DNA from: Stegostoma tigrinum
Lineage: Eukaryota
Length of the DNA stretch: 64,000 nt
Assembly (NCBI RefSeq): GCF_030684315.1
Contig: NC_081358.1
Span: 69,935,817-69,999,816, forward strand
Direction: 5' to 3'
In this document: piece by piece, positions 13,991-63,130 of the stretch
Layout: every line of letters starts with the position of its first letter
Position numbering within the stretch: the stretch's first letter is position 1
The notes under the pieces: model-generated
What the model saw: only the letters and a program-made list of their open reading frames with translations
What the model was told of the DNA's origin: nothing
The model's database searches: none
Made by a program: the position numbers and the translations under genes

Positions 13991-14182
13991 AGATAACATG
14001 GTAAAGAGCTGGATGAACACAACAGGCCAAGCAGCATCAGAGGAGCAGGAAAGCTGACATTTCGGGTCAAGACCCTTCTTTTTGAAAAGGAAACGTCAAC
14101 TTTGCTGCTCGGCCTGCTGTGTTCATCCTGCTCTTTACCGTGTTATCTCAGATTCTCCAACATTGGCAGTTCCTACTATCTC
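13991..14182 (+). mobile_element. Palindromic mini-PLE (family A)
   Basis: Inverted arms agataac...gttatct plus unpaired tail. TSD tgtactgaatattta (13976-13990) vs tgtactgtattttta (14183-14197), 13/15 identical. Confidence 0.85.
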
Positions 14183-14291
14183 TGTACTGTATTTTTAGCC
14201 CACTTGCCAGTGAAAGAAGATTAATTTTATGAGAAAAAATGTTTGAAATATTTAAAATTACTACTTTAATGCCGCATAATTCTCTCTGTAG

Positions 14292-14564
14292 CGAAGCCCA
14301 GTTTTGTGATTCAGCCACAGAACACTGAAGTCCTGGTTGGATCAAGTATCACTCTGGAATGCAGTGCAATTGGACATCCCCAACCTCGAATTACATGGAC
14401 TAAAGGAAATGGAGAGCTCCTCCCTGCCCACTCCAGGTACACCACAACACCCTCAGGTGGCCTCTTTATTCGGAATGTTACTCTCCAGGACCATGGCCAG
14501 TTCATTTGTCACGCCAGTAATAATCAAGATTCCATCCAATCCTCAGCATCCATCATTGTACAAG
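14292..14564 (+). CDS. Peroxidasin-family (PXDN/PXDNL) internal coding exon, complete second Ig domain
   Basis: Acceptor tctctctgtag ends at 14291 and donor gtaagc starts at 14565. 273 bp, phase 1-1, in frame with the previous exon (..[42 protein letters not shown]...[25 protein letters not shown]). Confidence 0.95.
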
Positions 14565-15599
14565 GTAAGCGTGACTGTGCTGTTGCTGAATAATGATGCT
14601 GGGTTATAAAGGAATGTCAGCATTTGGAAAATATGTTCTGATTTATTTTCATAATATACAAATGTGTATTTACTAAGCTGGGTTTTCCAAAATTGAGCAG
14701 TGAAATGATGAAAAATTAAGACCTATGATAATTTTCCATTCCCATCTGCTTTTTAATGAGTTGAAACGAAAGGTAAGGCTGCCAAAATCTGTTCATTTCC
14801 CTATGTAAATGTTTGCAGTGTGCCTGATGACCGATGCTCCTGGCAGTTGTGCCTGGGGCAGGAAAGAAAGAATCCCACTGGTTCTTCCGTAAATTCTGCC
14901 AAGAATCCACTCTATCTGAGTAATGAGCTCCAAACCAAGAAGATTAATCAGATTCATGGCATGTTTAGGACAGTGGGTAGAATATCCTCTCCAACTGTCT
15001 TCCAATGGAAGGAGTGGTATTAGGTTTATTAGTTCATGTTTCAAAAGGTTTACATTGTTTTATTGCAACTAATATGATAAACTAATGGTATTTCAGAAGT
15101 ATAAAAAGAAGTTTGAAACAATATTAATGCTGTATTCTTATTGACTGAAATTATTTAGGTGCTTGGAGATCAATTCACGTGATGATGGCTCCTCGATGTC
15201 TGCTAATTTAAGCATGTATATTGATGTTTCATTTTAATTCAGTTCAGATCATTCTATGGGATTGCACTGACGAAATTATGATTTTGGATTGTGTCATTCC
15301 TCCTTCAATAGTTATTGCAATATTTTCCTATTGTTAATTTTATCTCCTAGTTTTGCAGATGGTGCATACATAATTTATTCTACAATGTATAGTAGCTAAA
15401 TTTGCCAATGACACCGTGACAGACAGGAAAGTAAGTTGCCAAGAGGAGGTAGAGAGTCTATAGGTTAAGTGAGGAAGGAAGCATTTTGGCAAAATGAATA
15501 TAATATGAAGAATATAAAATAGTCTATTTTAGCAGGAAAAAAATAAAACAGTATGTTACTTAAATGAAGAGAGACTGCAGGACTTGTAGGAACACCTAG

Positions 15600-17900
15600 C
15601 ATCAACTTCCATTTGTAGATGAGAGTTTTAAAATCCACCACCCTTTGCTAGATCAGTTTTAGGTTTAAATCTGAGATTGATAATTTTTTGTTAAGCAAAG
15701 GCACTGAGAGATATGGGCTAAAGGCAAATATGTGGAGTTAGACCACATATCAGCCATTATCTCACTAAATGACAGACAGCTGAATGGCCTTATCCTGTTC
15801 CTATGCTCCAAGATGCATCCTAATATCTCTCCTGAATGGTCTGACCCTAATTTTTAGATTATGCCCTCTGGTTCTAGAATCTGCAATTAATAGTTTATCT
15901 TTATCAGCCTGGGGGCTTTGATCAGATCACCAGTTAAAATTCTACATTCTAAAGAATACAAAGCTAATTTGGATAACCTCTCTGACCAAGGGCAATATAT
16001 CCCTCCTAAGGTGTGGTGCCCAGATCTGTTCACTGTATTCCAAGTGGTGTCTAACCAGGGTTTTGCATGTCTTTATACTCCAGTCTTCTAGATATAAGGC
16101 CAGCATTCCATGAGCTTTCTTGATTCTTTTCTGCATCTGTTTGTGGCATTTCACAGGTCTATGCACCTGAAATTCTAAGTCTGTTTGTATCTATTGTATT
16201 TAACTTCATATCAGGTCGAAGATCCCCTGATATATCTTTTTTTGGTCCAAAAGAGATAAATTCTGACATTGATATCCATCTGCCACAATTTTACCCATTT
16301 CCCTAATCTGTCAATATCCCCTTCTAATTTTATGCTGTCATCTACATTTTCCACAATGCCATCTAACTTTGTATCGTCAGCAATAACTTTCAGTGCCATT
16401 TTCCAAGTTGTCAATAAATAACTTGAAATTTGAGGCCCAAATATAGGTCCACCAAACATCATTAGTCATATCCTGTAACCTTGAGTACCTACCCATTATT
16501 CCTACTTTCTATCAATCAAATTCTTGGCCATGTCACTAATTTACCATTAATTCCTTCGGCCTCTACTTAAGTTAACAGTCTTTTTCATGGAGATAGCAAG
16601 AACTGCAGATGCTGGAATCAGAGACAACACAGTGTGGAACTGGAGGAACACAGTGGGCCAGGCAGCATCGGAGGAACAGGAAAGTTGACATTTCGGGTCT
16701 GGACTCTCCCCCGTCAACTTTCCTGCTGCTCTGATGCTGCCTGGCCTGCCGTGTGGCTCCAGCTCCACACTGTGTCATCTCTTACATGGGATTTTATCAA
16801 ATGTTTTTGAGAAGTCCAGGTAAACAACATTTCCTTACCCAACATCCACTACCTTAGTCATCTCTTTGAGATGTTCAATGAGGTTTATCAGGCATGAGCT
16901 CCCATCACGAATCTATGTTGGCTCTGATTTACAAGGTATTTTCAAGGTATTCACTTACCCTGTCTTTGATTACAGACTCCAACAATTTCCCCACCACAGA
17001 TGTTAGGCTAACTGATCTGTAACTCTCTGGTTTTTCTCTTTCACCCTTCTTAAGAAGCAAAGTGATATGCAATTTTTTGAACCAGAGGAATGACTCCTCA
17101 ATTTAGGGGACTTTTTAAGATTATAGCTTGGGTGTTTGCAACATGCTCCCCTATTTCCTTTGATACCCTTGGATGGAAACCATCCTGTCCTAGGGATTTG
17201 TCTATATTTAATTCCATTGATTTCCTTATTCTCGAAGTTTTACCTGCATTAATGTTATATAACCTCTGTCCCCCTTACACTGTCAATTTTGTCTGGACTC
17301 CAGCAAGCTATCCTTCTCTTCTACTATAAATACTGATGCAAAGTCATTATTGAACAGGTTTGCCATTTCCCCATAGTTGTTCACAATATCTCCACTTTCA
17401 TTCTTTAGTGGTCCTGGCCAGCCTACTTTCCCCTAATGTGACTGTAATATTTCTTGTCCATTTTCATGTCCCTTGCAAGTTTTGTTTCAGAATCACTTTT
17501 ACTAGATCTTGTAATCTGATTTGTGACCCTTCAATAGTCTTTGTATCTTTCCTGTTCAGCATGATATTTGCTGGTTTTTGTGTTTTTGTAGGCCCTTTCT
17601 AGTAGTTTTCTGTTGTCCCTCGTTTCTTTAGTTATCAATGACTTTTTCCCTGTGAAATAGAGCTTTTCCCTCTCAAAGATATAAGCTAGTTCTGAATGTT
17701 GTTAAATGTTTCGTTAAACATCCTCCAGTATTCTTCAGTTGTTTTACTGGCAGATTTACCCGTTCTTTGTGGAAAAGTCTGTCTCATCTCATTAAGGTCA
17801 GCATTACCAAATCTAAACTTCCAGTATGTGCGTTATGCTTTTTGCTTTCAATCACTTCATTGAATTTGATATTTTTATGATCACTGTTTGACAAATGACT
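15600..17900 (-). mobile_element. Old CR1 LINE with nested insertions
   Basis: ORFs 15942-16166 (LVRHHLEYSEQIWAPHLR) and 16211-16462 (IADDTKLDG). Confidence 0.8.
16590..16780 (-). mobile_element. Palindromic mini-PLE (family A), tail on the left
   Basis: Tail agatagcaagaactgcagatgctgg followed by inverted arms; flanks tttcatgg / ttacatgg. Confidence 0.8.
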
Positions 17901-17904
17901 TTGT

Positions 17905-18730
17905 GGTACAAACGGATCTTGGTGTCCAGATACATGAATATCAGAAACCTAGTATGCAGATACAGCAAGTGATGAGGAAGACAACTGCATTGCAGAAGAA
18001 TGGATTATAAAAGTAGGAATTGATGAGATGATGTCTGGATACTATGTACAATTTTGGCTTTTTTTAAAGAAAATCTATATAACTGCTTCAAAATCAGTTC
18101 AATGGAAGTTCGCTTGATTCATTCCTGGGATCAAAAGTTTTATCAAGAGATTTTCTTATGAGGATGAGTTGAACAGGCTAGACCTATATCCTTTAGAGTT
18201 TAAAAGAATAAGATGTGGTCTAACTGATTTTGAGGGAATTAGATACAGCATAGTTTAAGAATAAGGGGTCTTCCTTTTAAGGTGGAGATGAAAAGTATTT
18301 GCTTTCTTCAGATAACAAGGTGTGGAGCTGGATGAACACAACAGGCCAGGCAGCATCCGAGGTGCAGAAAAGCTGATGTTTTGGGTCTGGACCCTTCTTC
18401 ATTTTCTGAAGAAGAGTCCACACCCGAAACATCAGCTTCCTGCTCCTCTGATGCTGCTTGGCCTGCTTTGTTCATCCAGCTCCACATCTTGTTATCTCAG
18501 ATTCTCCAGCATCGGCAGTTCCTACTATCTCTGCTTTATTCATAGAAGTTATTTGAAGCTGTGATTTTGTATTTACACAAGGATTGGTTCAATTTTTGAA
18601 ACAAATACGAGGCATGCGTTATGGGTTGCCGACTAAGTGAAGACCAAATCAGATCAGCCAAGATCTTATTGAATGATGGAGCAGGCTTAAGGCCGAGCAG
18701 CCTACGTACTGCTCCTACATTCCTGTATTG
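17905..18730 (+). mobile_element. Old CR1 LINE 3' fragment, interrupted by a mini-PLE
   Basis: Degenerate similarity to the CR1 ORF2 C-terminus and 3' UTR. Confidence 0.65.
18311..18531 (+). mobile_element. Palindromic mini-PLE (family A) with hammerhead motif
   Basis: Arms of ~90 bp. TSD tgctttcttca (18300-18310) vs tgctttattca (18532-18542). CTGAAGA...GAAACATC at 18406-18433. Confidence 0.88.
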
Positions 18731-21603: not shown

Positions 21604-21778
21604 CACAAAACCCAAAATTGCTGGAAAAACTCAGCAGGTCAGGCAGCGTCAGTAGAGAGAAATCAGAGCTTATCATTCAGGTTCAGTGACCCTTCTTCAG
21701 AATAATTATGAGTTTTTCTAGAAATTATGTTATTTGTTTCTGATTTCCAGCATCTGCAGTTATTTTAGGTTCTTTTGT
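21604..21778 (+). mobile_element. Mini-PLE derivative (family B), partly palindromic
   Basis: Perfect 11 bp TSD ttgattgtagg (21593-21603 and 21779-21789). Minus strand has a degenerate hammerhead ctgaagaagggtcactgaacctgaa; ends in a ccagcatctgcag tail. Confidence 0.75.

Positions 21779-22702: not shown

Positions 22703-22758
<56 letters not shown>
22703..22758. repeat. (TC)n(AC)n compound microsatellite
   Basis: Directly visible. Confidence 0.98.
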
Positions 22759-22763
<5 letters not shown>

Positions 22764-25255
22764 CATTTAGGAAATTCAGAAAGACAAGACAGGAGAGCTT
22801 ATAAATGAAAAACTCTGGAAAACACAGGGGTATTAAAAATTGGTTATAATTTCCGATGCTCCAGTGAGCTGGGCCCAAGAAAGTGTAAGTATCTTTCCAG
22901 CCAGCAACCTGGAGAGATCAGGGTCCAAGGCAAGCTGACAATTCAGATTGGAGGCTTGCTGTCCCTCTAAAGGAGAAAAAGCAACTGATTTAGAATCCCA
23001 GATTTGTATACTTAAACATTTTAATTGTTTCTGATTTCAGTCATGTGACAATGGCAATCATTTCAAGTGCTAAGAGCCCATCTCATCTAAGAGTCCACCA
23101 AGATCATTTTTTACATAAATTAATTAAAGCACATAAATTGTGAAGAAAATGTAGTTCTGTTTAGGATTTCTCTGCATTCATTCTGTCAGCAAATGTGAGA
23201 ATGGCCCAAGTTAGCAATATAATCTGGAAAACACTGCATGGAATAAAATTAATTTTAAGAAAGTGTGTTGGTTCTCTGTAATTCCATTTCAGTCTTTTGC
23301 CTACCTATTATTCTGTATCACTGAATGGAAAACAGAAGTGAAACAGAAGAGTTTGTGGTAGTGGGAGGGCTGAGAGGGGAAATGGTCTCACTAGATTTTG
23401 AAAGAGAACACATGGTTATTATTGACTTTCTTGTCTTCATAAGTCCCATATGTGTAAATCTTGTTTTAGTTACGCGACTAAACAAAGAGCAAAAGGCAGG
23501 GTAACACAGCAGAAATCTGTCAGCTCATGTAGAGTACAGGGAACAGTAATTATACAAGGAATGGCAATTCATTAGAGACTTTGTATTGTATTCCTCAAAC
23601 TAACTGAGGTAGTTGGCAAACTTAAGCGCTGAAGTCATTTCTTTATGTAGTTAGCAGTTGAATGCCAATGCTAGCTCATTATACTTTGCTTTAATTTAAG
23701 TCACAAACCAGCCAATCATACGAGTGACATTGTTTGATGCCAAGTTCATATTCCATCACACAAAATAGAATTGGCATTACCCAAAGTGAATAGCCACTTT
23801 TTGTTTACATTGTTACCTTCTAAACTTCAAGCACCGTGTTATATGGAAATGTTATTCTGGGATGTTGTTCAAAGTTTTAATTTTTTTTAGCTAATCTTAG
23901 CTGTCACTTTAGTGTCCAGTGTTCAGTCACTCTCTTGAGGGAGACTGGTCCAAGTGTAACATTAATAACATGTATTATTACATCAGCTTTAAAATAGGAA
24001 ATAATTACAAGGGCAAGTGGAGAGGTAGACATTCATCGTCATTATACAGGCATCGGCTGACTTCAGATCCATCGATTATCTTGCTAAAGGGCAACATACA
24101 GATGAGAAATAGGAATGGCTCAAGATAACAATATAAGGGACAAAAAAAGAGAATGCAATCCTGAAGGTGAACTGCCTATAATTGGATGCCTATATCTGGA
24201 ACCAAACAAATGAATCAAACAACATTCAAGACTTTAGAGCTATAATTGACAATGTTGGTGGTTACAGAGAACTGCGTGTAACATAAGATTTGAACATGCA
24301 CAAGGCCCAAAAATCATGAAGTAAGGATTCCTTTTTCTGATTGCATCAGGTCAATATAAACAGGAGGAGAAATATAAATAAAGAAATATTGACACTATAT
24401 ACATGGGTTGATCATTCCATTTATCTGAGGAATTCTTTTTTCTCCCTGCCCTCCCTTCCCATCAGCCCTCTCTCCACCAAAAACACTCTTTTCCAGCAAG
24501 ATTTTGTTTTATCGACCCCAGATGTCTTCCTTCAGCATCAACATCAGTTTATGCCCCAAAGAATTGCTCAGCTCTCCTTGCTCAATGTCTTCCGTCATTG
24601 TCGCTGTCAGCTGCTGGAGGTCCTGTTACTTAAGGGCGACAAAAATGATTGAAGTATCAAGGTGAGGATTACAGATATGATTAATGTTGGCCTAGGATTG
24701 TTAGGTGTTGAGGGAAAGGTGAAAATGAAAGATTCATACAGGATTGTTTTCAGTAAGAGAGTAGAACAAAGATACCTAACGTAACAACATGTTCAAGGAT
24801 TTTGTAATAGATAGAGCCAGAGATGGGGTAGTAGTCAATGAAGCAAATAAGTCATTTTCTTTTTGAGGTTGAGAATTCCACAGGCTCACCATGCTCTGAT
24901 TAAAGAAATTTCCCCTCATCCCAGTCCTAAATGGACTACACATTCTGTTGAGACAATTGGCAGCACTTGTAAACATATAGAGATGGTGCCTTACGCACAG
25001 GAATCATTTATAGTATCACTGGGGGATAGGCATAGATTTGAATATTTGAGGTTGCCACTGATTGCCAACAATATGACTCTGTCATTGTCTCAGTGATTTC
25101 TCCATGTTATCCAAAGATCAGATATAACAGCAGAAAAGAGCTTTTTTTTTCTCTGCCTGGTTCTCTTTAATAGAAATTTGTATTTCACAAAGTAGGTGGT
25201 TTCATTACTTCCTATGCACATCATAAATTGTGCAACCAAACTTCCACTACATGTT

Positions 25256-25450
25256 AATAAAGTGTGAAGCTGGATGAACACAGCAGGCCAAGCAGCATCT
25301 CAGGAGCACAAAAGCTGACATTTCGGGCCTAGACCCTTAGGCCCAAAACGTCAGCTTTTATGCTCCTGAGATGCTGCTTGGCCTGCTGTGTTCATCCAGC
25401 TTCACACTTTATTATCTTGGATTCTCCAGCATCTGCAGTTCCCATTATCT
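25256..25450 (+). mobile_element. Young palindromic mini-PLE (family A)
   Basis: Near-perfect ~75 bp inverted arms. Perfect 15 bp TSD cttccactacatgtt (25241-25255 and 25451-25465). Confidence 0.93.
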
Positions 25451-33714: not shown

Positions 33715-33794
33715 ATATAAGTTGAATTACACATGGAATATTTCTGCAGCAACCACAAAAACGGAATAGAGATTCAGGATGGATAATACCCTGG

Positions 33795-34018: not shown

Positions 34019-34022
34019 TCTC

Positions 34023-38028: not shown

Positions 38029-38161
38029 ATAACAAGGTGTAGAGATGGATATACACAACAGGCCAAGCAACATTGGAGGGCAGGAAAGCTGACGTTTTGG
38101 GTCTGGACCCTACTTCAGAAAAAAATTCTCAGATTCTGTACCATCTGCAGTTCCTATTATC
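38029..38161 (+). mobile_element. Mini-PLE (family A) with inverted arm and tail only
   Basis: TSD tccagagcacagac (38015-38028) vs tccagagtacagac (38162-38175); most of the tail-bearing arm is absent. Confidence 0.8.
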
Positions 38162-39002: not shown

Positions 39003-39217
39003 GAACAAAAACACAGGTTGTTGGAAATGTTGAGTAGATCTGGCAGCACCTGTGAAGAAAAATCAGTGTTAATATTTCAAGCCCTTCTGAGGAGGGGGTC
39101 ACCTGACCCGAAACGTTAACTCTGATTTTTCTTCATAGATGCTGCTAGACCTGCTCAGCTTTTCCAACAACCTGTGTTTTTCTTCTTGATTTACAGCATC
39201 TGCAATTCTGCAGTTTT
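39003..39217 (+). mobile_element. Palindromic mini-PLE (family B)
   Basis: Arms aaaaacacaggttgttggaaa...tttccaacaacctgtgttttt. Degenerate TSD catcttaaagacat / catcttatcaacat. Confidence 0.8.
39085..39119 (+). ncRNA. Minimal type I hammerhead ribozyme motif (PLE type)
   Basis: tt-CTGAGGA-gg-gggtca-cc-tgaccc-GAAA-CGTT-aa: catalytic boxes intact, stem II, self-complementary ACGT stem III, 2 bp stem I. Activity unknown. Confidence 0.6.
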
Positions 39218-39638: not shown

Positions 39639-40310
39639 GATAATGGGAACTGCAGATGCTGGAGAATCCAAGATAACAAAGTGGGAGCTGGATGAACACA
39701 GCAGGACAAGCAGCATCTAAGGAGTACAAAGGATGACATTATGGGCCTACACTCTTCATCAGAAAAGGGGGAGGGGGAAAGGGCTCTGAAATAAATAGGG
39801 AGAGAGGGGGAGGCAGATCAAAGATGGATCAAGGAAAAGATAGGTGGAGATGATTCAGACAAGCTAAAGAGGCGGGGATGGAGCCAGTAGAGACGAATGT
39901 AGGTGGGAGGTAGGGAGGGGATCGGTCAGCCCAAGGAGGACGGACAGGTCAAGGGGGCAGGATGAGGTTAGTGGGCAGGAAAAGGGGTGTGCGACTTGAG
40001 ATGGGAGGAGGGGATAGGTGAGAGGAAGAACAGGTTAGGGAGATGGTGACGAGCTGGGCTGGTTTTGGGATGCAGTGGGGGGAGGGGAGATTTTGAAGCT
40101 TGTGAAATCCACATTGATACCATTGGGCTGCAGGGTTCCCAAGCGGAATATGAGTTGCTGTTCCTGCAATCTTCGGGTGGCATCGTTGTGGCACTGCAGG
40201 AGCCCCAGGATGGACATGTCATCTAAGGAATGGGAGGGGGCGTTGAAATGGTTCGTGACTGGGAGGTGCAGTTGTTTATTGCGAACCGAGCGTACGTGTT
40301 CTGCAAAGTA
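39639..40310 (-). mobile_element. Penelope-like element 3' end (family A)
   Basis: ORF 40035-40217 (MSILGLLQCHNDATRRLQEQQLIFRLGTLQPNGIN) is the GIY-YIG C-terminus. Tail at the left end; flanks atgattctagt / atgattttagt. Confidence 0.9.
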
Positions 40311-45175: not shown

Positions 45176-48100
45176 TGTGAAGACTTACCATGTAGCACAC
45201 CGCATTAGCAGGTAAGTAACCAGCATTAATGAGATCCTCACTCTTGTGGGTGTCTAGATAAAGCGTTCGGATGGTGAGTTGAAGGGGAAGTCTGAATAGA
45301 TTTATTTCAGAAGAATGGACTGAAGGGTAATGGCAGATCTCTGTATTTGTTACTATTTCTAGTGAAGTTCTACAAGGCTCAGTATTTGGTCTTTTTGGTC
45401 TCTTTCCAATGATTTGGACTCAAATATGATGGTTGTGATTAAGAAATTTACAAAGTGCTCTCGGGGTGCAGTAGTATTTCCTCCAACTCTTGACCAGGAG
45501 CCCAGGTTCAAGTCTCACTTGTCCGAGAGGCGTGTAATAATATTTGTGTGTCACAATAATACAGGTTGGTCAGTAAAATTGATTAGATTTTTAAAAAGGA
45601 AATTTGGAAATGACATAAACTTGTCTGCACAATTGATGATGCAGACAAAAATTGCAGAAAAGTATAAATAGATTTTTGTTCATGAGATGTGTCTATCTCA
45701 GGATAGGCCAGCATCTGTTGCCCATCCCTAATTGCCTAGAACACAGTCAAGCATCAACCATATTACTGTGGATCTGTTCTCATGTCTAGGCCAGACCAAT
45801 TAAGAGTGGCTGATTTGCTTCTCTGAAGGACGTTAGTGAACCAGATGGATTTTTGCAATAATTAGCAGTGTTATATGGTCAACGTTTTAACTCCAGATTT
45901 TAATTAAATTCAAAGTTGAACCCATGTCACCAGAACATCAGCTTGGGCCTCTGGTTTAGCATCACAGTGAAAATATCACAAAGCCAGCACCTTCTGTGAA
46001 TATTTGCCAAGGTTTCTAGCAATCTTCTCTGTCTTAAATTTGTTTAACAGAAGGCTTGTGTTTAACCTCATGGGATTTAATTATACTAATGTAATAGTTC
46101 CATCGGATATGTTATAGTCAAACACTAATGAAGTATCTTGGATAAGTTCAAATTTGTCACTTCTAAAAGAATTTAAAGCTGACAAACTGACAATCTGAAC
46201 TGACATAAAACCAAGAAACAAATGCCGAAAATACTCAGCACATCAGACAGTATCTGCGGAGAAAAATAGAGTTAATGTTTCAGGTCAGCTACATTTAATC
46301 AGAACTGAATTGCAACATGTAGCATTATCAGTCTTTACAATCAAAAGTAGTCTCCCTGCCCATGAGCCAGGAGACCTAGGTTCGAGCTCTAGACATTCGT
46401 AATAACATTACTGAACAGGTTGATTAGAAAATTTTAAAATATCTACATAACTGTGGCCTGGGTCCTTTGCTCATTCTGGGCCTTGGATGTGTACATGGCC
46501 AGCAGCAGCAGTGCCTTTCTGGTAGTACTGCTGAGCCAGTTTAAGTAAGTCAGCAACTATTAAGAAGGTTTCTGCCCCTTTGGATCATTCCACGGGAAAG
46601 TCTGCCACTGGCCAGTTAAGTGCCTGATTGGCAGTTCATGTGGCAGTGCTTCTGCAAAAGCAGCAACTTTGGGCTTTTGGAGACTCTCATTCCAAGGCGT
46701 GCAGGACTTGCTTGATTACAGTATAGTCTTTTCCAATCTTTAGTTTCATGAAGTATACTTAGGATTTTCACCCCTCTTGACTGAAATTGGCACAAGAAAC
46801 TCAGAATTTGTACATCTGAATAAAATTCTTGACTTGAGGGACATGTTAACTATTAACTAATGCCAATACAGTGTTTTACTCAGTTGTTTAAAGTTTCCAC
46901 ATTAACAACAAGAATTGTTTTAAAAGTAAGTAAAATTGTTTGAATTTTCATCAATTTAACCTAAAACTCTCCTGAATTTTACAACAAAGAAAACATTGGT
47001 CGCTTTCTTTCTGGATATTCTCATGAGTTTTGACATGTCAACATGTAGCATTATCAGGAATATTTTAGCGTTTGTTTGGAGTGTTAGCAATGTTTCGCAC
47101 TGTGAGACATGTCATTTAAACCAAGTCTGCATTGACAAAAAGCAATCCTTCCTACTGCCTGCCACGCCTTATCATTTTATAATTCCTGTCTTGCTCCATT
47201 CACAAATAATAGGTAAGCATTTGCTGTCAAGATAAATGTCACTCACCATTATTATTTATGTAACTTCAAACCAGCGGCATAGCCTCCCTATCAAATGTCC
47301 AAATACTGTTGGGAGTTGCAACACTACATTGTTAGCTTCTTAAAAATGACAGGCCACAATAACAACAATTATGAATTTGCAGTACACGTGCAGTTATTAA
47401 ATACACAGGATACAAAATTAAGAATTGTTCCTTTTGAGCCAGCTCCTATTAGTGATGTGACCTGTTAATTACTGTCAATCAACTTCACTTTCACAGAAAA
47501 TAGTAGCTCCAAGTGTAATCCTATTGTTTTCTTTAGTTGGCTTTAGGCATTTTAAAGTTGTGAAATTCTAACTTGAATTTTTTAACTTTTCTGTCTTTTA
47601 ATCCAACCTTTTTGTCTTATCTTTGTCTTTCTCAATCTCATTTGATACTGAATTTGTTCACTTGAATTTACTCATCCTTCTCAGCCTTTTGCACCATTAT
47701 TTTCATAAACCTTCAGTGTCATCAGTTAAAGAGAAACATATCAACTTGGTCTGTTCACTTTTGTACCTGATGCCCTTTTTCTCTTAATGCAAAATTATCA
47801 GCCTGAACTTTCAGCAGCTTGCCATAAAAAGTTAGAAATCTAGGTGTTTTAGGCCAGGTCTAATAGAAGATGCTATTGCATGCACTATCAAAGCAAATTA
47901 TGGCCCAATGAACATGTTTCTCTGTGGAATGTTGCTATTGTCATAGGATATTAATGTCATACGGACTCATGAACAGTGCAGAGGGCAGAGTAAATTCCAT
48001 GTTTTCCTGAAATTTTTATATCACACTATCAGTCCTCTCACCAAAAACAATCAGAATTATCATAATCTGCTCCTGTTAAAATTAACAATGATTACAATGT

Positions 48101-52389: not shown

Positions 52390-52598
52390 AGGGTTTCCTC
52401 CAGGTGCTCCGGTTTCCTCCCACAGTCCAAAGATGTGCAGGCTAGGTGGATTGGCCATGCTAAATTGCCCATAGTGTTCCGGGATGTGTAGATTAGTGGG
52501 GGTTTTAGGGAGAACGGTCTGGGTGGGATGCTCCGAAGGTTGGTGTGGACCAGTTGGACTGAAGGGCCTATTTCCACACTATAGGGATTCTATGATTC
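52390..52598 (+). mobile_element. 5'-truncated V-SINE
   Basis: V-domain and tail only; duplicated at 59610-59818. Confidence 0.85.
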
Positions 52599-52739
52599 TT
52601 TGATGATTATGATCCATGGTGCTGTCGGGTCCCAGGGAATCAACAAATAATGCAAGAAGCAGTGCAACCCAAACATATGTTTTATTTATTCTGATAAAGC
52701 TGACAACTAGCATTTAGTTCCATTCTTATCAATCTAATA

Positions 52740-54030
52740 TTTGTCTGTGAATGAAATGCAAGCGCATCTCTTCCTGCTCCAACACAGTTACCTCAGCAAT
52801 CTTTTAAAGATATTCCTGGGCCTCCTTTCCTCATCTACAGGAGCAGCATCATCCAACTTGAAGGCATAACATCAATGTTTCACACAAATGCTGACAACCC
52901 TGGTTCTACCTCTTCACCACCTCTCTTGATTCATCATGACTATTAAATCTTCATCCTAGTTCTCTGTCGTCCAGTACTGGATGAGCAGAAATGTTCTTCA
53001 ATTGCGTATTTTGAAGTTCGAAATCATTGTTTTTGCTTTACATTCCAAACCTCATTCTCTTGCTACTGACTGTATCTGTCTTCCTGGTAATGCCTGAGAC
53101 CAAACCAGATTGTTCACAATTTTGGTATTACATTTGGCACTGACATAAATCTCTGACAACATATTTGCACAATCTGTAAGACCAGATTTTTTTTTTATTT
53201 CTGTAATATTGCCTGACTTCACTTCTGCCTCAACTCATCTGTTGCCGAAATACTTATTTATGCCCTTGCTAGGCTTCATTAATACAGTACAAGATTAGGG
53301 AGATGAACTTATACAGGCACTGGTTAGACTTCATTTGGCGTATTGTATATAGTTTTGGGTGCCACACTGTAGGAATGATGTGAATGCATTGGGAGAATGC
53401 AGAAGATATTTCCTGTAATGGTACCAAGGTCCAGAAAATTCAGTCATGAGGAAAAGTTGAAGAAGTTGGGATTGTTTTCCTTGGATGGGATTGGAATTGG
53501 AGGGGATTAATAGAAGTTTTCAAAAACTTGAGGGATCTGACAGAGTAGGTAGAGAGAAGCTGTTGCCATTCATTAAGAATTGGGAATCCAGATTCACAGT
53601 GTTAAAGTGTTTTGCAGAAGATGCTAGTCTTCCACATTCCACCCTTTGTGCACCATATGTCATCAAACATTTTGCTGCTCCTGACCTAACTTACAATGCC
53701 ATTCAGCCATCATTCCTACATTAGCTCCCAATCAAACCAGGTTTTGGAACTCCCATTCTTACTTGCAAATCCCTCTGCAGCCTACCTACCACTTATCTTT
53801 GTAACATTCTCCAATTTTACAACCCACTTCATTAATCTAATCTGCGCTGCTTGAGCATCCTTGATTTTAATTCCTCCACTTTTGCTGCCTTTAGCTGGAA
53901 ACATTCTAGGCTCTGTAATTTCCTCCCCAAATCCCTTTGACTCTCGATACCTCTTCTTTCAAGACACTTGTCACTCTTCTATCTCTGACCAAGTTTTATA
54001 ATGTGATACTCCTGTAAAGTGCCTATGTAT
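52740..54030 (+). mobile_element. Old L2 LINE RT/3' part with a nested CR1 fragment (~53290-53620)
   Basis: FHTNADN..YL and WMSRNVLQL..FEIIVF motifs typical of the L2 RT C-terminus; L2-type 3' end tcctgtaaagtgcc. Confidence 0.72.
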
Positions 54031-54955
54031 GCAAAGTAAGTCATTGGTAGAGTATCATTTTTATTTCTTTCGTTGAGATTTGTCAGAAAGAAGTTTAAAA
54101 TTTCTCTTTTTCATATTTGATAGATTTCATTTTAAAATAATTGGACAAATTGTTCATATTCTTTGTTCACTCTTTTGTCACTTGAGAAGGTCATTTATCT
54201 CAGATTAGACTTCATTGATGTAATTAGGGTCTGTCACTGACCTACCTATGACTAGAGCCCATGAGAGTTGTGGTGAGGAATGTTAGCAGGGAAAAATGGA
54301 CAAAGGTAGCTCTTAAAGGGGTGGGAAGATAGAGCTGTTGAAACTGCTGCTGGTTGAATTGCTGTCTCGAAGGACTTTCCGAGAATGTCAAGAGACCCAC
54401 GTAAACTGATATAATAAAAGCTGGTGAACACAGCAGGCCGAGCACGAAAGCTGACATTTTGTGTCTAGACCTTTCTTCTAACCCTACTGTGAAGCCTCTT
54501 CTAAGAATTAACCCCATCACATAAACTGATTCTGGGTTTTATCAAAGGGGACTCAAGGCTAAAATAGCTGCAGCAGTGTATAAAGGTGGAGGAGTAATTT
54601 GCTTAGCTAAAGATAATATGACAAGAACCTGGAAAGGGAGAGTAGGAACCAAGAGGGACTATGAGAAAAAGAAATGAATATAGAAATAATGGACTTGATT
54701 TTGCAATGGCAGCTAAAACATACATGCAAATAGACAAAGAGGGAACTGGGTTGCAAATGCACATTAGGGTTTAGAAAAGAAAGAAGTTTCTAACTTTGGT
54801 CATACACTCATTATTTGAATGTTACCACAAAAAGTTATAATATCAAATTATCCAATCAATATCAAACTACCAACACATGGGTGTAAAATTTCACCAGTTC
54901 TGTAATCTCACCAAATATTAAAGCAGTGCCGAAAACAAGGCCTATAAACCTAAGA

Positions 54956-55062
54956 CAACAAAGTATGGAGCTGGATGAACACAGCAGGGCAAATGCTGCT
55001 TGGCCTGCTGTGTTCATCCAGCTCCACACTTTGTTATCTCGGATTCTCCAGCATCAGCAGCT
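54956..55062 (+). mobile_element. Very short palindromic mini-PLE (family A)
   Basis: Perfect 15 bp direct repeat cctataaacctaaga (54941-54955 and 55063-55077) around ~35 bp inverted arms and the tail. Confidence 0.88.
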
Positions 55063-55317
55063 CCTATAAACCTAAGATTGTTTTATGATTTTTCCCCTGA
55101 ATCTCTCCTTTTGTATTTTATGGGTTTTCAACGTCAATTAGTGGTCTTTTTTCCAATTGTCAAGTCGTTTATTAGGTAAGTGTCATAACCCTCCATTTAT
55201 GATGAGTTCCTAATGTTTTATTGGTGAAGCCATTGAGCCTGATCTCTGGTTTGTATGGACTCTGAGAGACAGCAGTAGATCAAATGTAAGCAAAATACTG
55301 TAGGTAACCCATGACAT

Positions 55318-55862
55318 CATGTCGTTTTGTGGCTAGTTGATGTTCATGTATCCTGGTGGCTGGCTTTCTGCCTGTTTGTTCAATGTAGTGTTTTGGAGCC
55401 AATCTACCATCCTCTGAGAAAAAGAACAAAAACACTACATTGGACAAACAGGCAGAAAGCTAGCTACCAGGATACATGAACATCAACTAGCCACAAAATG
55501 ACATGACCCACTATCACTAGTATCTTTACATACAGATGAGGGAGGACACTACTTTGATTGGGACAACACATCCATCCTAGGACAAGCCAAACAGAGACAC
55601 GCACGAGAATTCCTAGAAGCATGGCATTCCAACCGGAACGCCATCAACAAACACATTGATTTGAAGCCAATCTGCCATCCTCTGAGAAAAAGAACAGAAA
55701 ATGACATCATCAACGCAAGGAAACCTAAACAGATAAATAGAAAGCAGGACATAAAACCAGCGCTTCATCGGAGGCTCATTGATGATATTACCTAGAATGG
55801 TGACGAAAAGTCTGAAAACTAACCTTCTAGCTCAGCGAGCCAACTCACATCCAGAAACTCAA
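55318..55862 (+). mobile_element. Penelope-like element (family D, Poseidon-like GIY-YIG 3' end); continues at 61608-61646
   Basis: Reads HYIGQTGRKLATRIHEHQLATK..HYFDWDNTSILGQAKQRHAREFLEAWHSNRNAINKHIDL. Hammerhead-like tca-TTGATGA-t-attacc-tagaat-ggtgac-GAAA-agtc-tga at 55776-55815. Confidence 0.87.
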
Positions 55863-58158
55863 GATAACAAAGTGTGGAGCTGGATGAACACAGCAGGCCA
55901 AGCAGCATCTCAGGAGCACAAAAGCTGAAGTTTCGGGCCTAGACCCTTCATCAGAGAGGGGGATGGGATGAGGGTTCTGGAATAAATAGGGAGAGAGGGG
56001 GAGACGGACCGAAGATGGAGAGAAAAGAAGATAGGTGGAGAGGAGAGTATAGGTGGGGAGGTAGGTAGGGGATAGGTCAGTCCAGGGAAGACGGACAGGT
56101 CAAGGCGGTGGGATGAGGTTAGTAGGTAGGAAATGGAGGTGCGGCTTGACGTGGGAGGAAGGGATGGGTGAGAGGAAGAACAGGTTAGGGAGGCAGAGAC
56201 AGACTGGGCTGGTTGTGTGATGCAGTGGGGGGAGGAGGTCAACTGGGTTGGTTTTGGGATGCGGTGGAGGAATGGGAGATTTTGAAGCTGGTGAAGTCCA
56301 CATTGATACCATTGGGCTGCAGGGTTCCCAAGCGGAATATGAGTTGCTGTTCCTGCAACCTTCAGGTGGCATCCTTGTGGCACTGCAGGAGGCCCATGAT
56401 GGACATGTTGTCTGAAGAATGGGAGAGGGAGTTAAAGTGGTTCGCGACTGGGAAGTGCAGTTGTTTATTGCGAACCGAGCGAAGGTGTTCTGCAAAGCGG
56501 TCCCCAAGCCTCCGCTTGGTTTCCCCAATGTAGAGGAAGCCACACCGGGTACAATGGATACAGTATACCACATTGGCAGATGTGCAGGTGAACCTCTGCT
56601 GAATGTGGAAAGTCATCTTGGGGCCTGGGATGGGGGTGAGGGAGGAGGTGTGGGGGCAAGTGTAGCACTTCCTGCTGTTGCAGGGGAAGGTGCCGGGTGT
56701 GGTGGGGTTGGAGGGCAGTGTGGAGTGAACAAGGGAGTCACGGAACAGTGGTGTCTCCGGAAGACAGACAAGAGTGGGGATTGAAAATGTCTTGGGTGGT
56801 GGGGTTGGATTGTAGATGGCGGAAGTGTCGGATGATGATGCGTTGTATCAGGAGGTTGGTGGGGTGGTGTGTGAGAACGAGGGGGATCCTCTTAGGGCTG
56901 TTGTGGCGGGGGCGGGGTGTGAGGGATGTGTTGAGGGAAATGCGGGAGATGTGGTCAAGGGCGTTCTCGACCACTGCGGGGGAAAAGTTGCAGTCCTTGA
57001 AGAACTTGGACATCTGGGATGTGCGGGAGTGGAATGCCTCATCCTGGGAGCAGATGCGGCGGAGGTGGAGGAATTGGGAATAGGGGATGGAATTTTTGCA
57101 GGAGGGTGGGTGGGAAGAGGTGTAATCTAGATAGCTGTGGGAGTCAGTTTGCTTGAAATGGACATCAGTTACTAGCTGGTTGCCTGAGATGGGGACTAAG
57201 AGGTCCAGGAAGGTGAGGGATGTGTTGGAGATGGTCCAGGTGAACTTGAGGTTGGGGTGGAAGGTGTTGGTGAAGTGGATGAACTGTTCGAGCTCCTCTG
57301 GGGAGCAAGAGGCGGCGCCGATACAGTCATCAATGTAACGGAGGAAGAGGTGCGGTTTGGGGCCTGTGTAGGTGCGGAAGAGGGACTGTTCCACGTAACC
57401 TACAAAGAGGCAGGCATAGCTGGGGCCCATGCGGGTGCCCATGGCCACCCCCTTGGTCTGTAGGAAGTGGGAGGAATCGAAACAGAAGTTGTTGAGGGTG
57501 AGGACGAGTTCGGCAGGGCGTATGTGGGTGTCAGAGGAGGGGGACTGGTCGGGCCTGCGGGACAGGAAGAAGCAGAGGGCCTTGAGGCCATGTGCATGAT
57601 GAATACAGGTGTACAGGGACTGGACGTCCATGGGGAAAATGAGGTGTTGGAGGCAAGGGAATTGGAAGTCCTGGAGGAGGCGGAGGGCGTGGGTGGTGCC
57701 ATGGATGTAGGTAGGGAGTTCCTGGACCAAAGGGGAGAAAATGGAGTCCAGATAGGTGGAGATGAGTTCGGTGGATCAGGAACAGGCTGAGACAATTGGT
57801 CGACCAGGGCAGGTAGGTTTGTGGATTTTGGGAAGGAGGTAGAAATGGGCCATGTGGGGTTGGGGAACAATGAGGTTGGAGGCTGTGGGTGGGAGGTCCC
57901 CTGAGGTGATGAGGTCATGGATGGTGTTGGAAATGATGGTTTGGTGCTCGGGGGTGGGGTCATGATCGAGGGGCGGTAGGAGGAGGTGTCGGAGAGTTGG
58001 CGTTTGGCCTCAGCGATGTAGAGGTCAGTGCATCATACTATCACTGTGCCACCCTTGCCTGCGGGCTTGATGGTGAGGTCGGGGTTGGAGCAGAGGCGGC
58101 AGAGGGAGCAGAGGGCTGCCCATTCTGCGGGAGAGAGGTTGGAGTAGGTGAGAGGGGT
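55863..58158 (-). mobile_element. Penelope-like element (family A), inverted arm: RT plus GIY-YIG, frameshifted
   Basis: ORF 56738-57730 (MDVQSLYT, QTKGVAMGTRMGPSYA, RYIDD, FLDL) and ORF 56362-56616 (VVYCIHC..YIGETKR..RFAEH). Confidence 0.95.
55925..55956 (-). ncRNA. Minimal hammerhead ribozyme motif in the pLTR
   Basis: ct-CTGATGA-a-gggtctaggccc-GAAA-cttc-ag: core boxes intact, stem III palindrome mutated (ACGT to ACTT). Confidence 0.55.
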
Positions 58159-59201
58159 ACCCGCATGGGCCCCAGCTATGCCTGCCTCTTTGTAGGTTAC
58201 GTGGAACAGTCCCTTTTCCGCACCTACACAGGCCCCAAACCGCACATCTTCCTCCGCTACATTGATGACTGTATCGGCGCCGCCTCTTGCTCCCCAGAGG
58301 AGCTCGAACAGTTCATCCACTTCACCAACACCTTCCACCCCAACCTCAAGTTCACCTGGACCATCTCCAACACATCCCTCACCTTCCTGGACCTCTCAGT
58401 CCCCATCTCAGGCAACCAGCTAGTAACTGATGTCCATTTCAAGCCCACTGACTCCCACAGCTATCTGAAAACACCTCCTCCCACCCACCCTCCTGCAAAA
58501 ATTCCATCCCCTATTCCCAATTCCTCTGCCTCCGCCGCATCTGCTCCCAGGATGAGGCATTCCACTCCCGCACATCCCAGATGTCCAAGTTCTTCAAGGA
58601 CCGCAACTTTCCCCCCGCAGCGGTCGAGAACGCCCTTGACCACATCTCCCGCATTTCCCTCAACAAATCCCTCACACCCCGCCCCCGCCATAACCGCCCT
58701 AAGAGGATCCCCCTCGTTCTCACACACCACCCCACCAACCTCCTGATACAACGCATCATCATCCGACACTTCCGCCATCTACAATCCGACCCCACCACCC
58801 AAGACATTTTTCCATCTCCACCCTTGTCTGCCTTCCGGAGAGACCACTGTTCCGTGGCTCCCTTGTTCACTCCACACTGCCCTCCAACCCCACCACACCC
58901 GGCACCTTCCCCTGCAACAGCAGGAAGTGCTACACTTGCCCCCACACCTCCTCCCTCACCCCCATCCCAGGCCCCAAGATGACTTTCCACATTCAGCAGA
59001 GGTTCACCTGCACATCTGCCAATGTGGTATACTGTATCCATTGTACCCGGTGTGGCTTCCTCTACATTGGGGACCGCTTTGCAGAACACCTCTGCTTGGT
59101 TCGCAATAAACAACTGCACCTCCCAAATGCGAACCCCTCCCATTCTTTAGATGACATGTCCATCATGGGCCTCCTGCAGTGTCACAAGGATGCCACCCGA
59201 A
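58155..59201 (+). mobile_element. Penelope-like element (family A), direct arm part 1
   Basis: Starts at GTRMGPSYA and runs through RYIDD and the thumb into the GIY-YIG region; stops at the junction with duplicated host DNA. Confidence 0.93.
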
Positions 59202-60343
59202 ATAGGAGCAGATTTAGGCCATTCAGCCCTTCAAGCCTGCTCCACCATTCAATAATGGACTGCAGAATTTTAGGGATGGGCAAAAAGTGACAGTCTTACC
59301 AGGCATGATCACATCCTTCAAATGAATGAAAAAAAAACTTCAGTAATTAAATTTATAGTAAAGGCAGTGTTTTTCTTCATCATAAATTGTCTCAAACAGA
59401 GCAGGCAAACAAACCTAGAATGAACTTTAATGACCATGAAGCTAGTAAAGTCCAGAGCTCATTCTATTTATTTCAATCAAATTTCCTCTTATTCTACCAT
59501 AAATTATTAGGGGAAAATATTTCACTTAGTGCTGACCAGTAATGATTCTCTGGTACAGACATTGTCCTGTCCAGGCAATGAACTATGTGGCATGCATAGA
59601 GTCCTTCGGAGGGTTTCCTCCAGGTGCTCCGGTTTCCTCCCACAGTCCAAAGATGTGCAGGCTAGGTGGATTGGCCATGCTAAATTGCCCATAGTGTTCC
59701 GGGATGTGTAGATTAGTGGGGGTTTTAGGGAGAACGGTCTGGGTGGGATGCTCCGAAGGTTGGTGTGGACCAGTTGGACTGAAGGGCCTATTTCCACACT
59801 ATAGGGATTCTATGATTCTTTGATGATTATGATCCATGGTGCTGTCGGGTCCCAGGGAATCAACAAATAATGCAAGAAGCAGTGCAACCCAAACATATGT
59901 TTTATTTATTCTGATAAAGCTGACAACTAGCATTTAGTTCCATTCTTATCAATCTAATATTTGTCTGTGAATGAAATGCAAGCGCATCTCTTCCTGCTCC
60001 AACACAGTTACCTCAGCAATCTTTTAAAGATATTCCTGGGCCTCCTTTCCTCATCTACAGGAGCAGCATCATCCAACTTGAAGGCATAACATCAATGTTT
60101 CACACAAATGCTGACAACCCTGGTTCTACCTCTTCACCACCTCTCTTGATTCATCATGACTATTAAATCTTCATCCTAGTTCTCTGTCGTCCAGTACTGG
60201 ATGAGCAGAAATGTTCTTCAATTGCGTATTTTGAAGTTCGAAATCATTGTTTTTGCTTTACATTCCAAACCTCATTCTCTTGCTACTGACTGTATCTGTC
60301 TTCCTGGTAATGCCTGAGACCAAACCAGATTGTTCACAATTTT
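59199..60343 (+). repeat. Direct duplicate of host sequence 51979-53123
   Basis: Offset 7220; no differences seen by eye. Identical ORFs at 52302/59522 and 52309/59529. Confidence 0.95.
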
Positions 60344-60347
60344 CCCA

Positions 60348-61606
60348 ATTCCCAATTCCTCTGCCTCCGCCGCATCTGCTCCCAGGATGAGGCATTCCAC
60401 TCCCGCACATCCCAGATGTCCAAGTTCTTCAAGGACCGCAACTTTCCCCCCGCAGCGGTCGAGAACGCCCTTGACCACATCTCCCGCATTTCCCTCAACA
60501 AATCCCTCACACCCCGCCCCCGCCATAACCGCCCTAAGAGGATCCCCCTCGTTCTCACACACCACCCCACCAACCTCCTGATACAACGCATCATCATCCG
60601 ACACTTCCGCCATCTACAATCCGACCCCACCACCCAAGACATTTTTCCATCTCCACCCTTGTCTGCCTTCCGGAGAGACCACTGTTCCGTGGCTCCCTTG
60701 TTCACTCCACACTGCCCTCCAACCCCACCACACCCGGCACCTTCCCCTGCAACAGCAGGAAGTGCTACACTTGCCCCCACACCTCCTCCCTCACCCCCAT
60801 CCCAGGCCCCAAGATGACTTTCCACATTCAGCAGAGGTTCACCTGCACATCTGCCAATGTGGTATACTGTATCCATTGTACCCGGTGTGGCTTCCTCTAC
60901 ATTGGGGACCGCTTTGCAGAACACCTCTGCTTGGTTCGCAATAAACAACTGCACCTCCCAAATGCGAACCCCTCCCATTCTTTAGATGACATGTCCATCA
61001 TGGGCCTCCTGCAGTGTCACAAGGATGCCACCCGAAGGTTGCAGGAACAGCAACTCATATTCCGCTTGGGAACCCTGCAGCCCAATGGTATCAATGTGGA
61101 CTTCACCAGCTTCAAAATCTCCCCTTCCCCCACTGCATCCCAAAACCAGCCCAGTTCGTCCCCTCCCCCCACCGCATCACACTACCAGCCCAGCTCATCC
61201 CCTACCCCCACTGCATCCCAAAACCAGCCCAGCCTGTCTCTGCCTCCCTAACCTGTTCTTCCTCTCACCCATCCCTTCCTCCCACCTCAAGCCACACCTC
61301 CATTTCCTACCTACTAACCTCATCCCACCTCCTTGACCTGTCCGTCTTCCCTGGACTGACCTATCCCCTCTCTACCTTCCCACCTATACTCTCCTCTCCA
61401 CCTATCTTCTTTTCTCTCCATCTTCGGTCCGCCTTCCCCTCTCTCCCTATTTATTCCAGAACCCTCTCCCCATCCCCCTCTCTGATGAAGGGTCTAGGCC
61501 CAAAACGTCAGCTTTTGTGCTCCTAAGATGCTGCTTGGCCTGCTGTGTTCATCCAGCTCCACACTTTGTTATCTTGGATTCTCCGGCATCTGCAGTTCCC
61601 ATTATC
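60348..61606 (+). mobile_element. Penelope-like element (family A), direct arm part 2 with pLTR and tail
   Basis: 60348-61036 repeats 58513-59201 (offset 1835). Continues through the GIY-YIG end, a hammerhead-like motif at 61482 and the tail ...cagttcccattatc. Confidence 0.93.
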
Positions 61607-61649
61607 TCCAGAAACTCAACCTGAGCTGCAAATCTTCTCAAATCTCATT

Positions 61650-63130
61650 GTATTCTTCCAGTTTCTCCATTTCCGTTGCATCTGTTCTGATGCTGCCATC
61701 TCCTACTGGGCTGACTCTGACATGACCTATTGTAAGGTTGAACTTTAAACTTATTTTTTCATTTTTCTATTTTGTACCTCGGCATCTTTGCATCTGAGAT
61801 AGTGTAAGAAATGGTAATATTATACACTTTTCACTGTGCTCTTGTACTTTTGTACTTGACTACACGTGACACTAAAACCTAATTCCACACTATTTCTATT
61901 CTAATTCCACTGTTACCTCTTCACAATATTCCCTTCTATTGTGATCGACAGGCCCTCAGCCAAGCCCGACCTATCTCCTGGCCTCACCCATTCGTCTCCT
62001 TCCCTGACAATGATAGGGTTCCTCTTGTCCTCATTTCTTACTACACTGGTCTGTGCATTTAAAGGAACATCCTTTGCTGAATCTGCTACATGCAGCACGA
62101 TGGCACCATCAAACACATCTTCCCTTGTCCTTCATTGTCACCTTTCTGTAGGGACCATTCCTTCCATGACATCTTGGACCACTCCTCCATCATATCTCCT
62201 TGCTTTCCCATGGCACCTTCAATTGCAATCGCAGAGGCTGTATTATTTTACAATTCATCTCCCGTCTCCTAACTGTTCAAGGCCCCAAAAACATCTTGCA
62301 GGTGAAACAGCATTTCACTTGTAGTTTTTTTCATTCTAGTCTGCTGATTCTCTGCTCACTAATGTGGTCTCCTTTGTATTGATAAGACAAAACGTTTGGG
62401 GAATGCCTCTGCTCAGACTGCAGCAATGACCTTCCAGTTTCTTGACATTTCAATAAACCACCTTAATCTCATGTTAACATTTCTGTAATGGGCCTGCTGC
62501 AGTGTTCCAATGAAGCACAACACAAGCTCAAAGAACAACAGATAACAAAGTGTGGGGCTGGATGAACACAGCAGGCCAAGCAGCATTTTAGGAGCAGAAA
62601 AGCTGATGCTTCGGGCCTAGACCCTTCATCAGAAAAAAAGAGTTTAGGCCCGAAGCATCAGCTTTTGTGCTCCTAAGATGCTGCTTGGCCTGCTGTGTTC
62701 ATCCAGCCCCACACTTTGTTATCTTGGATTCTCAAGCATCTGCATCCCATTATCTCAAAGAACAACACCTTATTTTTCACACAGGAACATTACAGCCTCA
62801 ACACTGAATTCCACAATGATGTTTGTGCTCCATTTTCCTACATTCCTTACATCCACTTCCTAACAGCCTGTGTTGTTTATTTTGTTCTCAGTTAGGAGAC
62901 CCATTCTTGTCCTTTCCATGTTAATTTTCAACCACTTTATTTGTTTTCTTTCTCTTTCATTTCCATTAACAACCATTTCGTCTTTTGCACTGGACAATAT
63001 CTGTCCCCTCCACCTCTCCTACACCTGTGTTGTAAATATTAAAAGATCATTTTCCAATCTCTTTTCTATTCTGATAAAGAGTAATTTTCAACTCAAAATG
63101 TTCACTCTGTTTCTCTATGTACACATGCTG
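61650..63130 (+). mobile_element. Old, diverged Penelope-like element with nested insertions
   Basis: SQFLHFRCICSD, HGTFNCNRRGC..VQGPKNILQVKQHFTC and GLLQCSNEAQHKLKEQ resemble family A but are diverged. A probable LINE 3' UTR fragment sits at ~61731-61890. Confidence 0.75.
62541..62753 (+). mobile_element. Young palindromic mini-PLE (family A)
   Basis: 14 bp direct repeat ctcaaagaacaaca (62527-62540 and 62754-62767); near-perfect ~80 bp arms. Confidence 0.92.

Follow-up and report, generated by a model that had tools for sequence, protein, structure and literature searches.

In a 64,000-nt stretch of the Stegostoma tigrinum genome (NC_081358.1, positions 69,935,817 to 69,999,816 of the forward strand; 'the window', numbered from its first letter), nine short, mostly palindromic inserts almost certainly derive from Penelope-like elements (PLEs), and their arms stop at a preferred point, the 5′ edge of a hammerhead motif in the pseudo-long terminal repeat (pLTR). 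This arm end is the new detail. The anatomy, an inverted pLTR with a tail and target-site duplications (TSDs), is already published and not new; endonuclease-bearing (EN+) PLE insertions with an inverted pLTR, a 31-bp tail, 8–10-bp TSDs and an empty site with a single TSD copy are described in PMC3846280, so that an initial annotation of the window had overrated the novelty of the design. Papers are cited here for the parts of their text that were available. The inserts are very probably independent assemblies rather than an amplified MITE family (MITE, miniature inverted-repeat transposable element), and we consider them probable stumps of EN+ PLEs, made anew at each insertion via two nicks and two internally primed cDNAs.

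Ends shared with a coding Penelope-like element

All nine inserts that the initial annotation had reported were found, with lengths of 107–221 bp, making up 2.6% of the window. They lie in non-coding DNA near exons of immunoglobulin (Ig) domains on the + strand. Seven of them (13991, 16590, 18311, 25256, 39003, 54956 and 62541) are two-armed hairpins, in which two PLE 3′ ends are joined head to head as had been proposed, with arms of 40–87 nt that are 84–95% complementary. The proposal does not hold for 38029 and 21604, each of which has a single long inverted arm and an opposite side that scarcely extends beyond the tail (37 nt at 38029). The insert at 16590 is reversed relative to the other eight, with its tail at the left. 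Three end types occur among the inserts, designated A, A′ and B. The roughly 35 extra nt that had been noticed on one arm correspond to a tail of 33–34 nt between a fixed inner end and a fixed outer end, except at 54956, where the tail ends ~7 nt early.

When the insert arms were used in BLAST searches, further copies appeared that had escaped the initial annotation, namely a 5.7-kb copy (55863-61606), two longer truncated copies and three decayed short ones (Table 1). The hammerhead motif in the centre had likewise been missed. The 5.7-kb copy is 5′-truncated and frameshifted, and its inverted arm begins at the same agataac end that had been pointed out in the short inserts. Within this TSD-bounded copy a reverse transcriptase (RT) is followed by a C-terminal GIY-YIG endonuclease, as in EN+ PLEs, and the RT frame has 294 longer homologues with an RT/GIY-YIG-type architecture. 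A one-sided tail combined with an inverted, 5′-truncated copy is likewise the pattern of EN+ PLEs. Because the RT/GIY-YIG copy has the same ends, the short inserts correspond to the last 40–135 nt of PLEs, and the PLE origin that had been suggested is thereby borne out, with a perfect 13-bp TSD around the coding copy.

The C-x4-C-x2-C motif upstream of the GIY-YIG motif is the Zn-finger-like linker between RT and EN that is found in Neptune and is common to Nematis (PMC8557442), and judging from the sequence the family looks Neptune-type. In EN+ PLEs the pLTR contains the start of the ORF. A candidate start here is an ATG 81 nt before the end, which opens 27 codons in three of five copies through the tail; by eye, these codons are not matched by the N-termini of homologues, and the window lacks sequence past the tail.

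Target sites, arm ends, centre junctions and surroundings

TSDs of 11–15 bp had been attributed to most inserts. Four are perfect (21604, 25256, 54956 and 62541), as had been stated, making five in the window with that of the long copy, and four are imperfect, with one mismatch (38029 and 18311) or two (13991 and 16590); 39003 has no flush TSD, its best candidate being 7 bp. Chance matches were gauged on 150 randomly placed pairs of positions in each class, searched with slack identical to that of the real search; these yielded 0/150 at 9 bp perfect, 1/150 at 11 bp with one mismatch and 3/150 at 12 bp with two mismatches. The four perfect TSDs and those at 38029 and 13991 exceed chance. The TSDs at 16590 and 18311 are weak, because the control reaches comparable matches.

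Empty sites were sought among paralogues at 10 junctions. When the 62541 insert was removed in silico together with one TSD copy, the older PLE endonuclease fragment around it aligned unbroken to PLE proteins and also to four paralogues in the window, which bridge this junction. When both TSD copies were kept, the reading frame of the older fragment shifted. No paralogue bridged 8 of the 10 junctions, and the single weak match at 16590 (58% identity) was not used. Thus the TSD is supported by a single paralogous empty site; the expected empty site with one TSD copy was found in this form, while no orthologous one was seen.

The arm ends cluster at the hammerhead-like motif, whose C3 lies at 61482 in the long copy and part of which is contained in most insert centres. 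The core and helix II of this putative ribozyme were identified by pattern and are near-intact in two copies of the window; Rfam returned 13 matches, all under the gathering score, which are microRNA (miRNA) hairpins and include no hammerhead. In 11 of 12 short inserts, counting 46204, 54412 and 63270 with the nine, the longer arm stops by eye within −7 to +8 nt of C3; 54956 is the lone exception, and the remaining three copies reach 670 bp to 2.3 kb per arm. For this range of positions, chosen after looking, a uniform 30–200 nt null gives P of about 6e-11, and a log-uniform null over all 15 copies gives 8e-15, or 3e-13 when 40 such ranges are allowed for. Arm truncation is therefore non-random, with the 5′ edge of the hammerhead as the preferred end point; the extreme shortness that had been remarked on is real, but it is not random truncation.

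Contigs from four public runs (X2 and X17 from organism A, X5 and X10 from organism B) were aligned to 61240-62140 at 85% likeness, numbering 239,229 (X2), 2,462 (X17), 28,744 (X5) and 23,732 (X10). The X2 run has at least 622 contigs that start at 61481, where the flanks on the upstream side are unrelated (agreement 0.38), and head-to-tail joints from the inner end return to 61478-61483 (17, 14, 8, 6 and 5 contigs). The inner end is fixed, as loose ends lie behind 61574 in at least 3092 (X2), 42 (X17), 970 (X5) and 831 (X10) contigs with a flank agreement of 0.38–0.41, and further loose ends lie at 61571-61575. The hexamer TTATCT precedes both fixed ends, 33 nt apart, and is the sole motif (6 bp) common to them.

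Three of the listed joints, which may represent one family, connect the tail end (61608) to 61510-61511, the base after the predicted cut, with depths of 187, 125 and 112 versus ~16 for single-copy sequence. From their position they may record cleaved RNA. The intervening letters (TGA, TGATA), however, also match the start of the hammerhead, so these joints are explained equally well by a jump to 61482 and subsequent loss of helix II.

Several other signals around the ends were set aside. Folding of six ends gave no z-score below −1.2. Of nine tail-bearing copies, five keep intact a 7-bp stem of GATGCTG with the tail; this stem shows no compensatory change and is not taken as evidence. Each of the four runs has a higher contig depth on the downstream side of the hammerhead edge; depth cannot rank parts, however, and was not used. 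Nor was a cap signature, since an extra G precedes 61478/61480 in two joints and other letters stand there in others.

The centre junctions of the nine inserts are all different (9/9), as had been reported. In six of seven elements an arm's own inverted partner is its best match among full-length-aligned arms (rank 1 or 2 of 16), any arm ranked above the partner being a 30–47-nt piece; the exception is 54956, where the own arm ranks 9. This own-partner likeness indicates that both arms come from one source. Among the joints listed for the contigs, six are opposite-strand centre joints (61480-61491 / 61518-61530), each with at most 9 contigs per run. The differing centres, the likeness of partner arms and these varied, low-count joints in two species support the earlier view that the inserts are independent products. 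Across the 10 two-sided copies (nine short and the long one, judged by eye), the tail-bearing arm is longer in five and shorter in five.

Table 1. Coordinates of the short inserts, the coding copy with its motifs, and other related copies in the window.
Feature	Position	Strand	Details
Short hairpin insert, family A′	13991..14182	+	Tail and inverted arm, internal deletions in forward arm; TSD 13976-13990 / 14183-14197, 15 bp, 2 mismatches
Short hairpin insert, family A′	16591..16781	-	Tail on left; weak TSD, 12 bp, 2 mismatches
Short hairpin insert, family A′	18311..18531	+	Both arms extend to hammerhead core; TSD 11 bp, 1 mismatch
Short insert, family B	21604..21778	+	Long inverted arm, forward side scarcely more than tail; TSD 11 bp, perfect
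Short hairpin insert, family A	25256..25450	+	TSD 15 bp, perfect (25241-25255 / 25451-25465)
Short insert, family A′	38029..38161	+	Forward arm consists of tail only, inverted arm reaches hammerhead edge; TSD 14 bp, 1 mismatch
Short hairpin insert, family B	39003..39217	+	No flush TSD; hammerhead motif nearly complete, at 39087
Shortest hairpin insert, family A	54956..55062	+	Arms stop before hammerhead; TSD 15 bp, perfect
Short hairpin insert, family A	62541..62753	+	TSD 14 bp, perfect; inside older PLE endonuclease fragment
Long head-to-head PLE copy, family A	55863..61606	+	2.3-kb inverted arm 55863-58188, forward arm from ~58155, tail; TSD 13 bp, perfect (55850-55862 / 61607-61619)
PLE reverse-transcriptase frame	56741..57775	-	345 aa stop to stop; RVT_1 E 6e-4, under curated Pfam cut-off; best named match 72% identical, Chiloscyllium punctatum
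Linker motif Cys-x4-Cys-x2-Cys and GIY-YIG endonuclease frame	56365..56847	-	GIY-YIG E 2e-4, just under Pfam cut-off
Type I hammerhead-like motif in pLTR	61482..61509	+	CUGAUGA core, 4-bp helix II, GAAAC-GUC; one core change in long copy; predicted cleavage after 61509
Tail	61575..61608	+	33-34 nt, between inner end (61574) and outer end
810-bp 5′-truncated copy, family A	10092..10927	+	Tail; ~25-nt inverted stub at left end; no TSD found
670-bp 5′-truncated copy, family A	39639..40308	-	Inverted arm absent, tail present; TSD candidate 11 bp, 1 mismatch
Decayed solo arm, family B	46204..46296	-	Ends at hammerhead edge; TSD candidate 12 bp, 1 mismatch, overlapping arm end
Decayed solo arm, family A/A′	54412..54478	-	Ends at hammerhead edge; no TSD
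Decayed hairpin insert, family B	63270..63445	+	No TSD

The long copy contains a rearrangement of its own. A 693-bp piece (58509-59201) reappears at 60344-61036 with a single mismatch, and the two occurrences flank a 1145-bp segment identical to 51979-53123 (0 mismatches), both joints of which show a few bases of microhomology. The 58509-61036 duplication is far younger than the arms, which are 90–95% alike, and is either a recent template-switch duplication beside the long inverted repeat or an assembly error. Just beyond the endonuclease end of the forward arm, a 39-bp tandem repeat occupies 61120-61233 with 2.9 copies.

The long insertion sits in the end of a second PLE type (55306-55862 and 61620-61646), which has its own GIY-YIG and a different hammerhead-like end, and which we take to be Poseidon-type. 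This host element carries an internal 78-bp inversion (55317-55394 / 55429-55506) with a 44-bp copy of a downstream piece at the joint. The insertions at 62541 and 55863 are among the youngest, and both lie inside older PLEs, one of them in a pLTR.

The tail is on the right (+), which is the strand of the Ig exons, in 11 of the 13 tail-bearing copies (two-sided P 0.02, noticed after the fact). Ig I-set exons of the host gene lie on the + strand at 3561-3899 and 14270-14590; a PDB search with them did not name the gene, which may be peroxidasin. Decayed RT fragments of long interspersed nuclear elements, which we assume to be CR1-like, are found at 8454-9827, 11654-13408 (RVT_1 at 11657-12499) and 50401-51243.

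Proposed route of formation and its alternatives

We propose that the element protein would nick both target strands 11–15 bases apart, which would give rise to the TSD. In vitro, the PLE protein of the anole can nick either strand and extend it, and it starts RT at two internal sites that bracket the tail (PMC11167929), and the two fixed ends here would be the counterparts of these start sites. The strand primed at the outer site would then become the tail-bearing arm, and the other strand, primed at the inner site, the tail-less inverted arm. If priming takes place in the transcript's leading pLTR, RT would run off the RNA 5′ end after ~95–130 nt, which is the size of the stumps, while priming in the downstream pLTR would produce long, randomly truncated copies. 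The 3′ ends of the cDNAs would be trimmed and end-joined, with a different centre each time. Stumps made in this way are likely dead on arrival, because the RNA that the anole element needs for activity reaches past the tail.

The 5′ edge of the hammerhead is likely where the element RNA begins. Because the arms end at this edge, their extreme truncation likely reflects run-off after internal priming rather than a random stop, and on balance we lean towards run-off at the RNA 5′ end itself. With the anole protein in vitro, RNA shortened from its 5′ side gives a shorter product (PMC11167929). The 5/5 split of the longer arm is as expected for two separate cDNAs and speaks against simple fold-back.

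Several points weigh against this account. The proposed RNA start is read from arm ends and contigs, the latter of which cannot show RNA ends, and no cap-like extra base is evident by eye at the arm ends in the window. In D. virilis, transcription starts ~120 nt upstream of the hammerhead, with helix I beginning at the intron end (PMC2377424, PMC4209133), so the class has no rule that places the start at this edge of the motif. The in vitro system is a Poseidon element, whereas the family here looks Neptune-type. The window does not include what lies upstream of the hammerhead in families A′ and B, so the ends of their solo arms may be under-read. No organism B contig among those listed bridges the orthologous empty site of the long copy. 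One centre joint (61481/61518) recurs in both species, with 5, 9 and 4 contigs. The strongest joint, 61573/61606, connects opposite strands in at least 44 contigs of X2 only, at a depth of 2199 versus ~16 for single-copy sequence, fusing the inner end to the tail end with no target DNA between; it is absent from the joints listed for the two organism B runs and is not predicted by our model. Possible readings are a tandem array, a copy inserted in the end of the element itself, or an amplified unit of small size. Finally, centre joints are known from the listed ones only, the X2 counts are lower bounds and identical copies merge in contigs, so that an amplified centre could escape notice.

The alternative that survives best keeps the PLE origin and the independent assembly, but takes the arm end as a site where RT stalls or jumps template inside a long RNA, at the hammerhead fold, at the start of a pyrimidine tract or at microhomology with the tail end. 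The arm end does fall where the hammerhead meets a long pyrimidine-rich tract, and the letters after the tail end (TGA, TGATA) resemble the hammerhead edge and could steer jumps. On the other hand, four long arms in the window read through this point without trouble, and the end point is the same in families A, A′ and B despite differing upstream letters. We regard such stalling or jumping as unlikely, and run-off of two internally primed cDNAs as the better explanation.

Fold-back self-priming, by which a single cDNA or, as PMC3846280 proposes, an antisense template copies itself into the inverted arm, would account for private variants common to both arms (62541, 25256 and 13991), although these equally follow from a single source locus. 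Fold-back from a tail-bearing cDNA predicts that this arm is always the longer one, but it is shorter in half of the two-sided copies and is reduced to the tail at 38029 and 21604. The fixed stop 33–34 nt short of the outer end is also left unexplained, and we find the process distinctly improbable compared with two separately primed cDNAs.

The least probable alternative, to which we give very little credence, is an amplified non-autonomous family, either a MITE or a master RNA resembling a short interspersed nuclear element or a retrozyme and arising from a solo pLTR or hairpin: the 61481/61518 joint in two species and the 44-contig end-to-end joint favour it, short tandem units exist, non-autonomous pLTR derivatives are known (10.64898/2026.07.22.740005) and a short pLTR-only master RNA would yield the same arm end, but the centres all differ, the ends are asymmetric, the TSDs span 11–15 bp, a coding copy is bounded by ends of the same design, the window has no tandem array of such units and, compared with thousands of ends, few contigs carry the listed centre joints.

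Known systems and what the stumps may record

The closest relatives of the inserts are complex EN+ PLE insertions, with which they share a head-to-head inverted truncated copy, a one-sided tail, a TSD, an RT followed by GIY-YIG and a pLTR hammerhead (PMC3846280, PMC8557442, PMC8969392); the class picture includes a 30–40-bp tail and a TSD (PMC8557442, PMC8969392). Those insertions are kilobase copies with 8–10-bp TSDs, whereas the ones here are mostly non-coding and 107–221 bp long, with TSDs of 11–15 bp and arms with a preferred 5′ end. In PAc (Poseidon, Anolis carolinensis), as here, two fixed ends bracket the tail just downstream of the hammerhead, and both strands are extended in vitro (PMC11167929); PAc differs in being a Poseidon element studied in vitro, while the family here has the Neptune/Nematis Cys linker. 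The available text of that paper describes no hairpin stumps or run-off boundary in genomes.

Minimal hammerheads of metazoan PLEs occur as opposite-strand motif pairs 100–700 bp apart and as many solo copies (PMC4209133). The motif here resembles them in its place in the pLTR, an unpaired base before helix II and a palindromic helix III region; helix I differs, being only 2 bp in family A and 4 bp in B. The parts of PMC4209133 available to us do not give a hairpin, tail and TSD anatomy for the motif pairs. Non-LTR retrozymes are likewise short, non-coding, hammerhead-bearing pLTR derivatives (10.64898/2026.07.22.740005), but they form head-to-tail tandem arrays, whereas the inserts here are single and head to head with TSDs. 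Head-to-tail tandem hammerhead units are absent from the window, and some tandem joints occur in contigs from elsewhere in the genome.

Two further systems produce inverted-repeat structures of a different kind. MITEs have the look of short inverted repeats, with symmetric ends, a fixed TSD length and a common interior. The inserts share this look, but symmetric terminal inverted repeats are replaced by a one-sided tail, a fixed short TSD by variable ones of 11–15 bp, and a common interior by nine different centres and listed joints of at most 9 contigs. L1 twin priming, in which both target strands prime, yields an inverted and a direct part that are not repeats of one another; in the inserts here the two parts are.

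Palindromic PLE inserts do not appear in the available text of PMC5753468 or PMC9004415. In the open literature (with Repbase, Dfam, subscription papers and the supplementary figures of PMC11167929 outside this scope), neither stump-sized hairpin inserts in sharks nor an arm end at the hammerhead edge was found.

How PLEs integrate is described as still open (PMC8557442, PMC11167929), and follow-up is worthwhile for the run-off boundary and for the joints that may lie at a cleavage site. Repeat tools and miRNA scans will misfile such stumps as MITEs or pre-miRNAs. As tens of thousands of contigs per run bear these ends, arm ends, centres and TSDs can be counted, and such counts could separate two-strand priming from fold-back, locate the RNA start and probe hammerhead cleavage in vivo. 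Tentatively, the stumps might even be a fossil record of PLE integration in vivo, in which a dimer primes both strands at TTATCT-marked sites, run-off at the hammerhead edge yields a strong-stop-like product that integrates, and the joints at 61510 derive from hammerhead-cleaved RNA used as template. If so, the transcription start site, the RT start sites, the nick stagger and the ribozyme activity of any PLE family would be readable from the genome.

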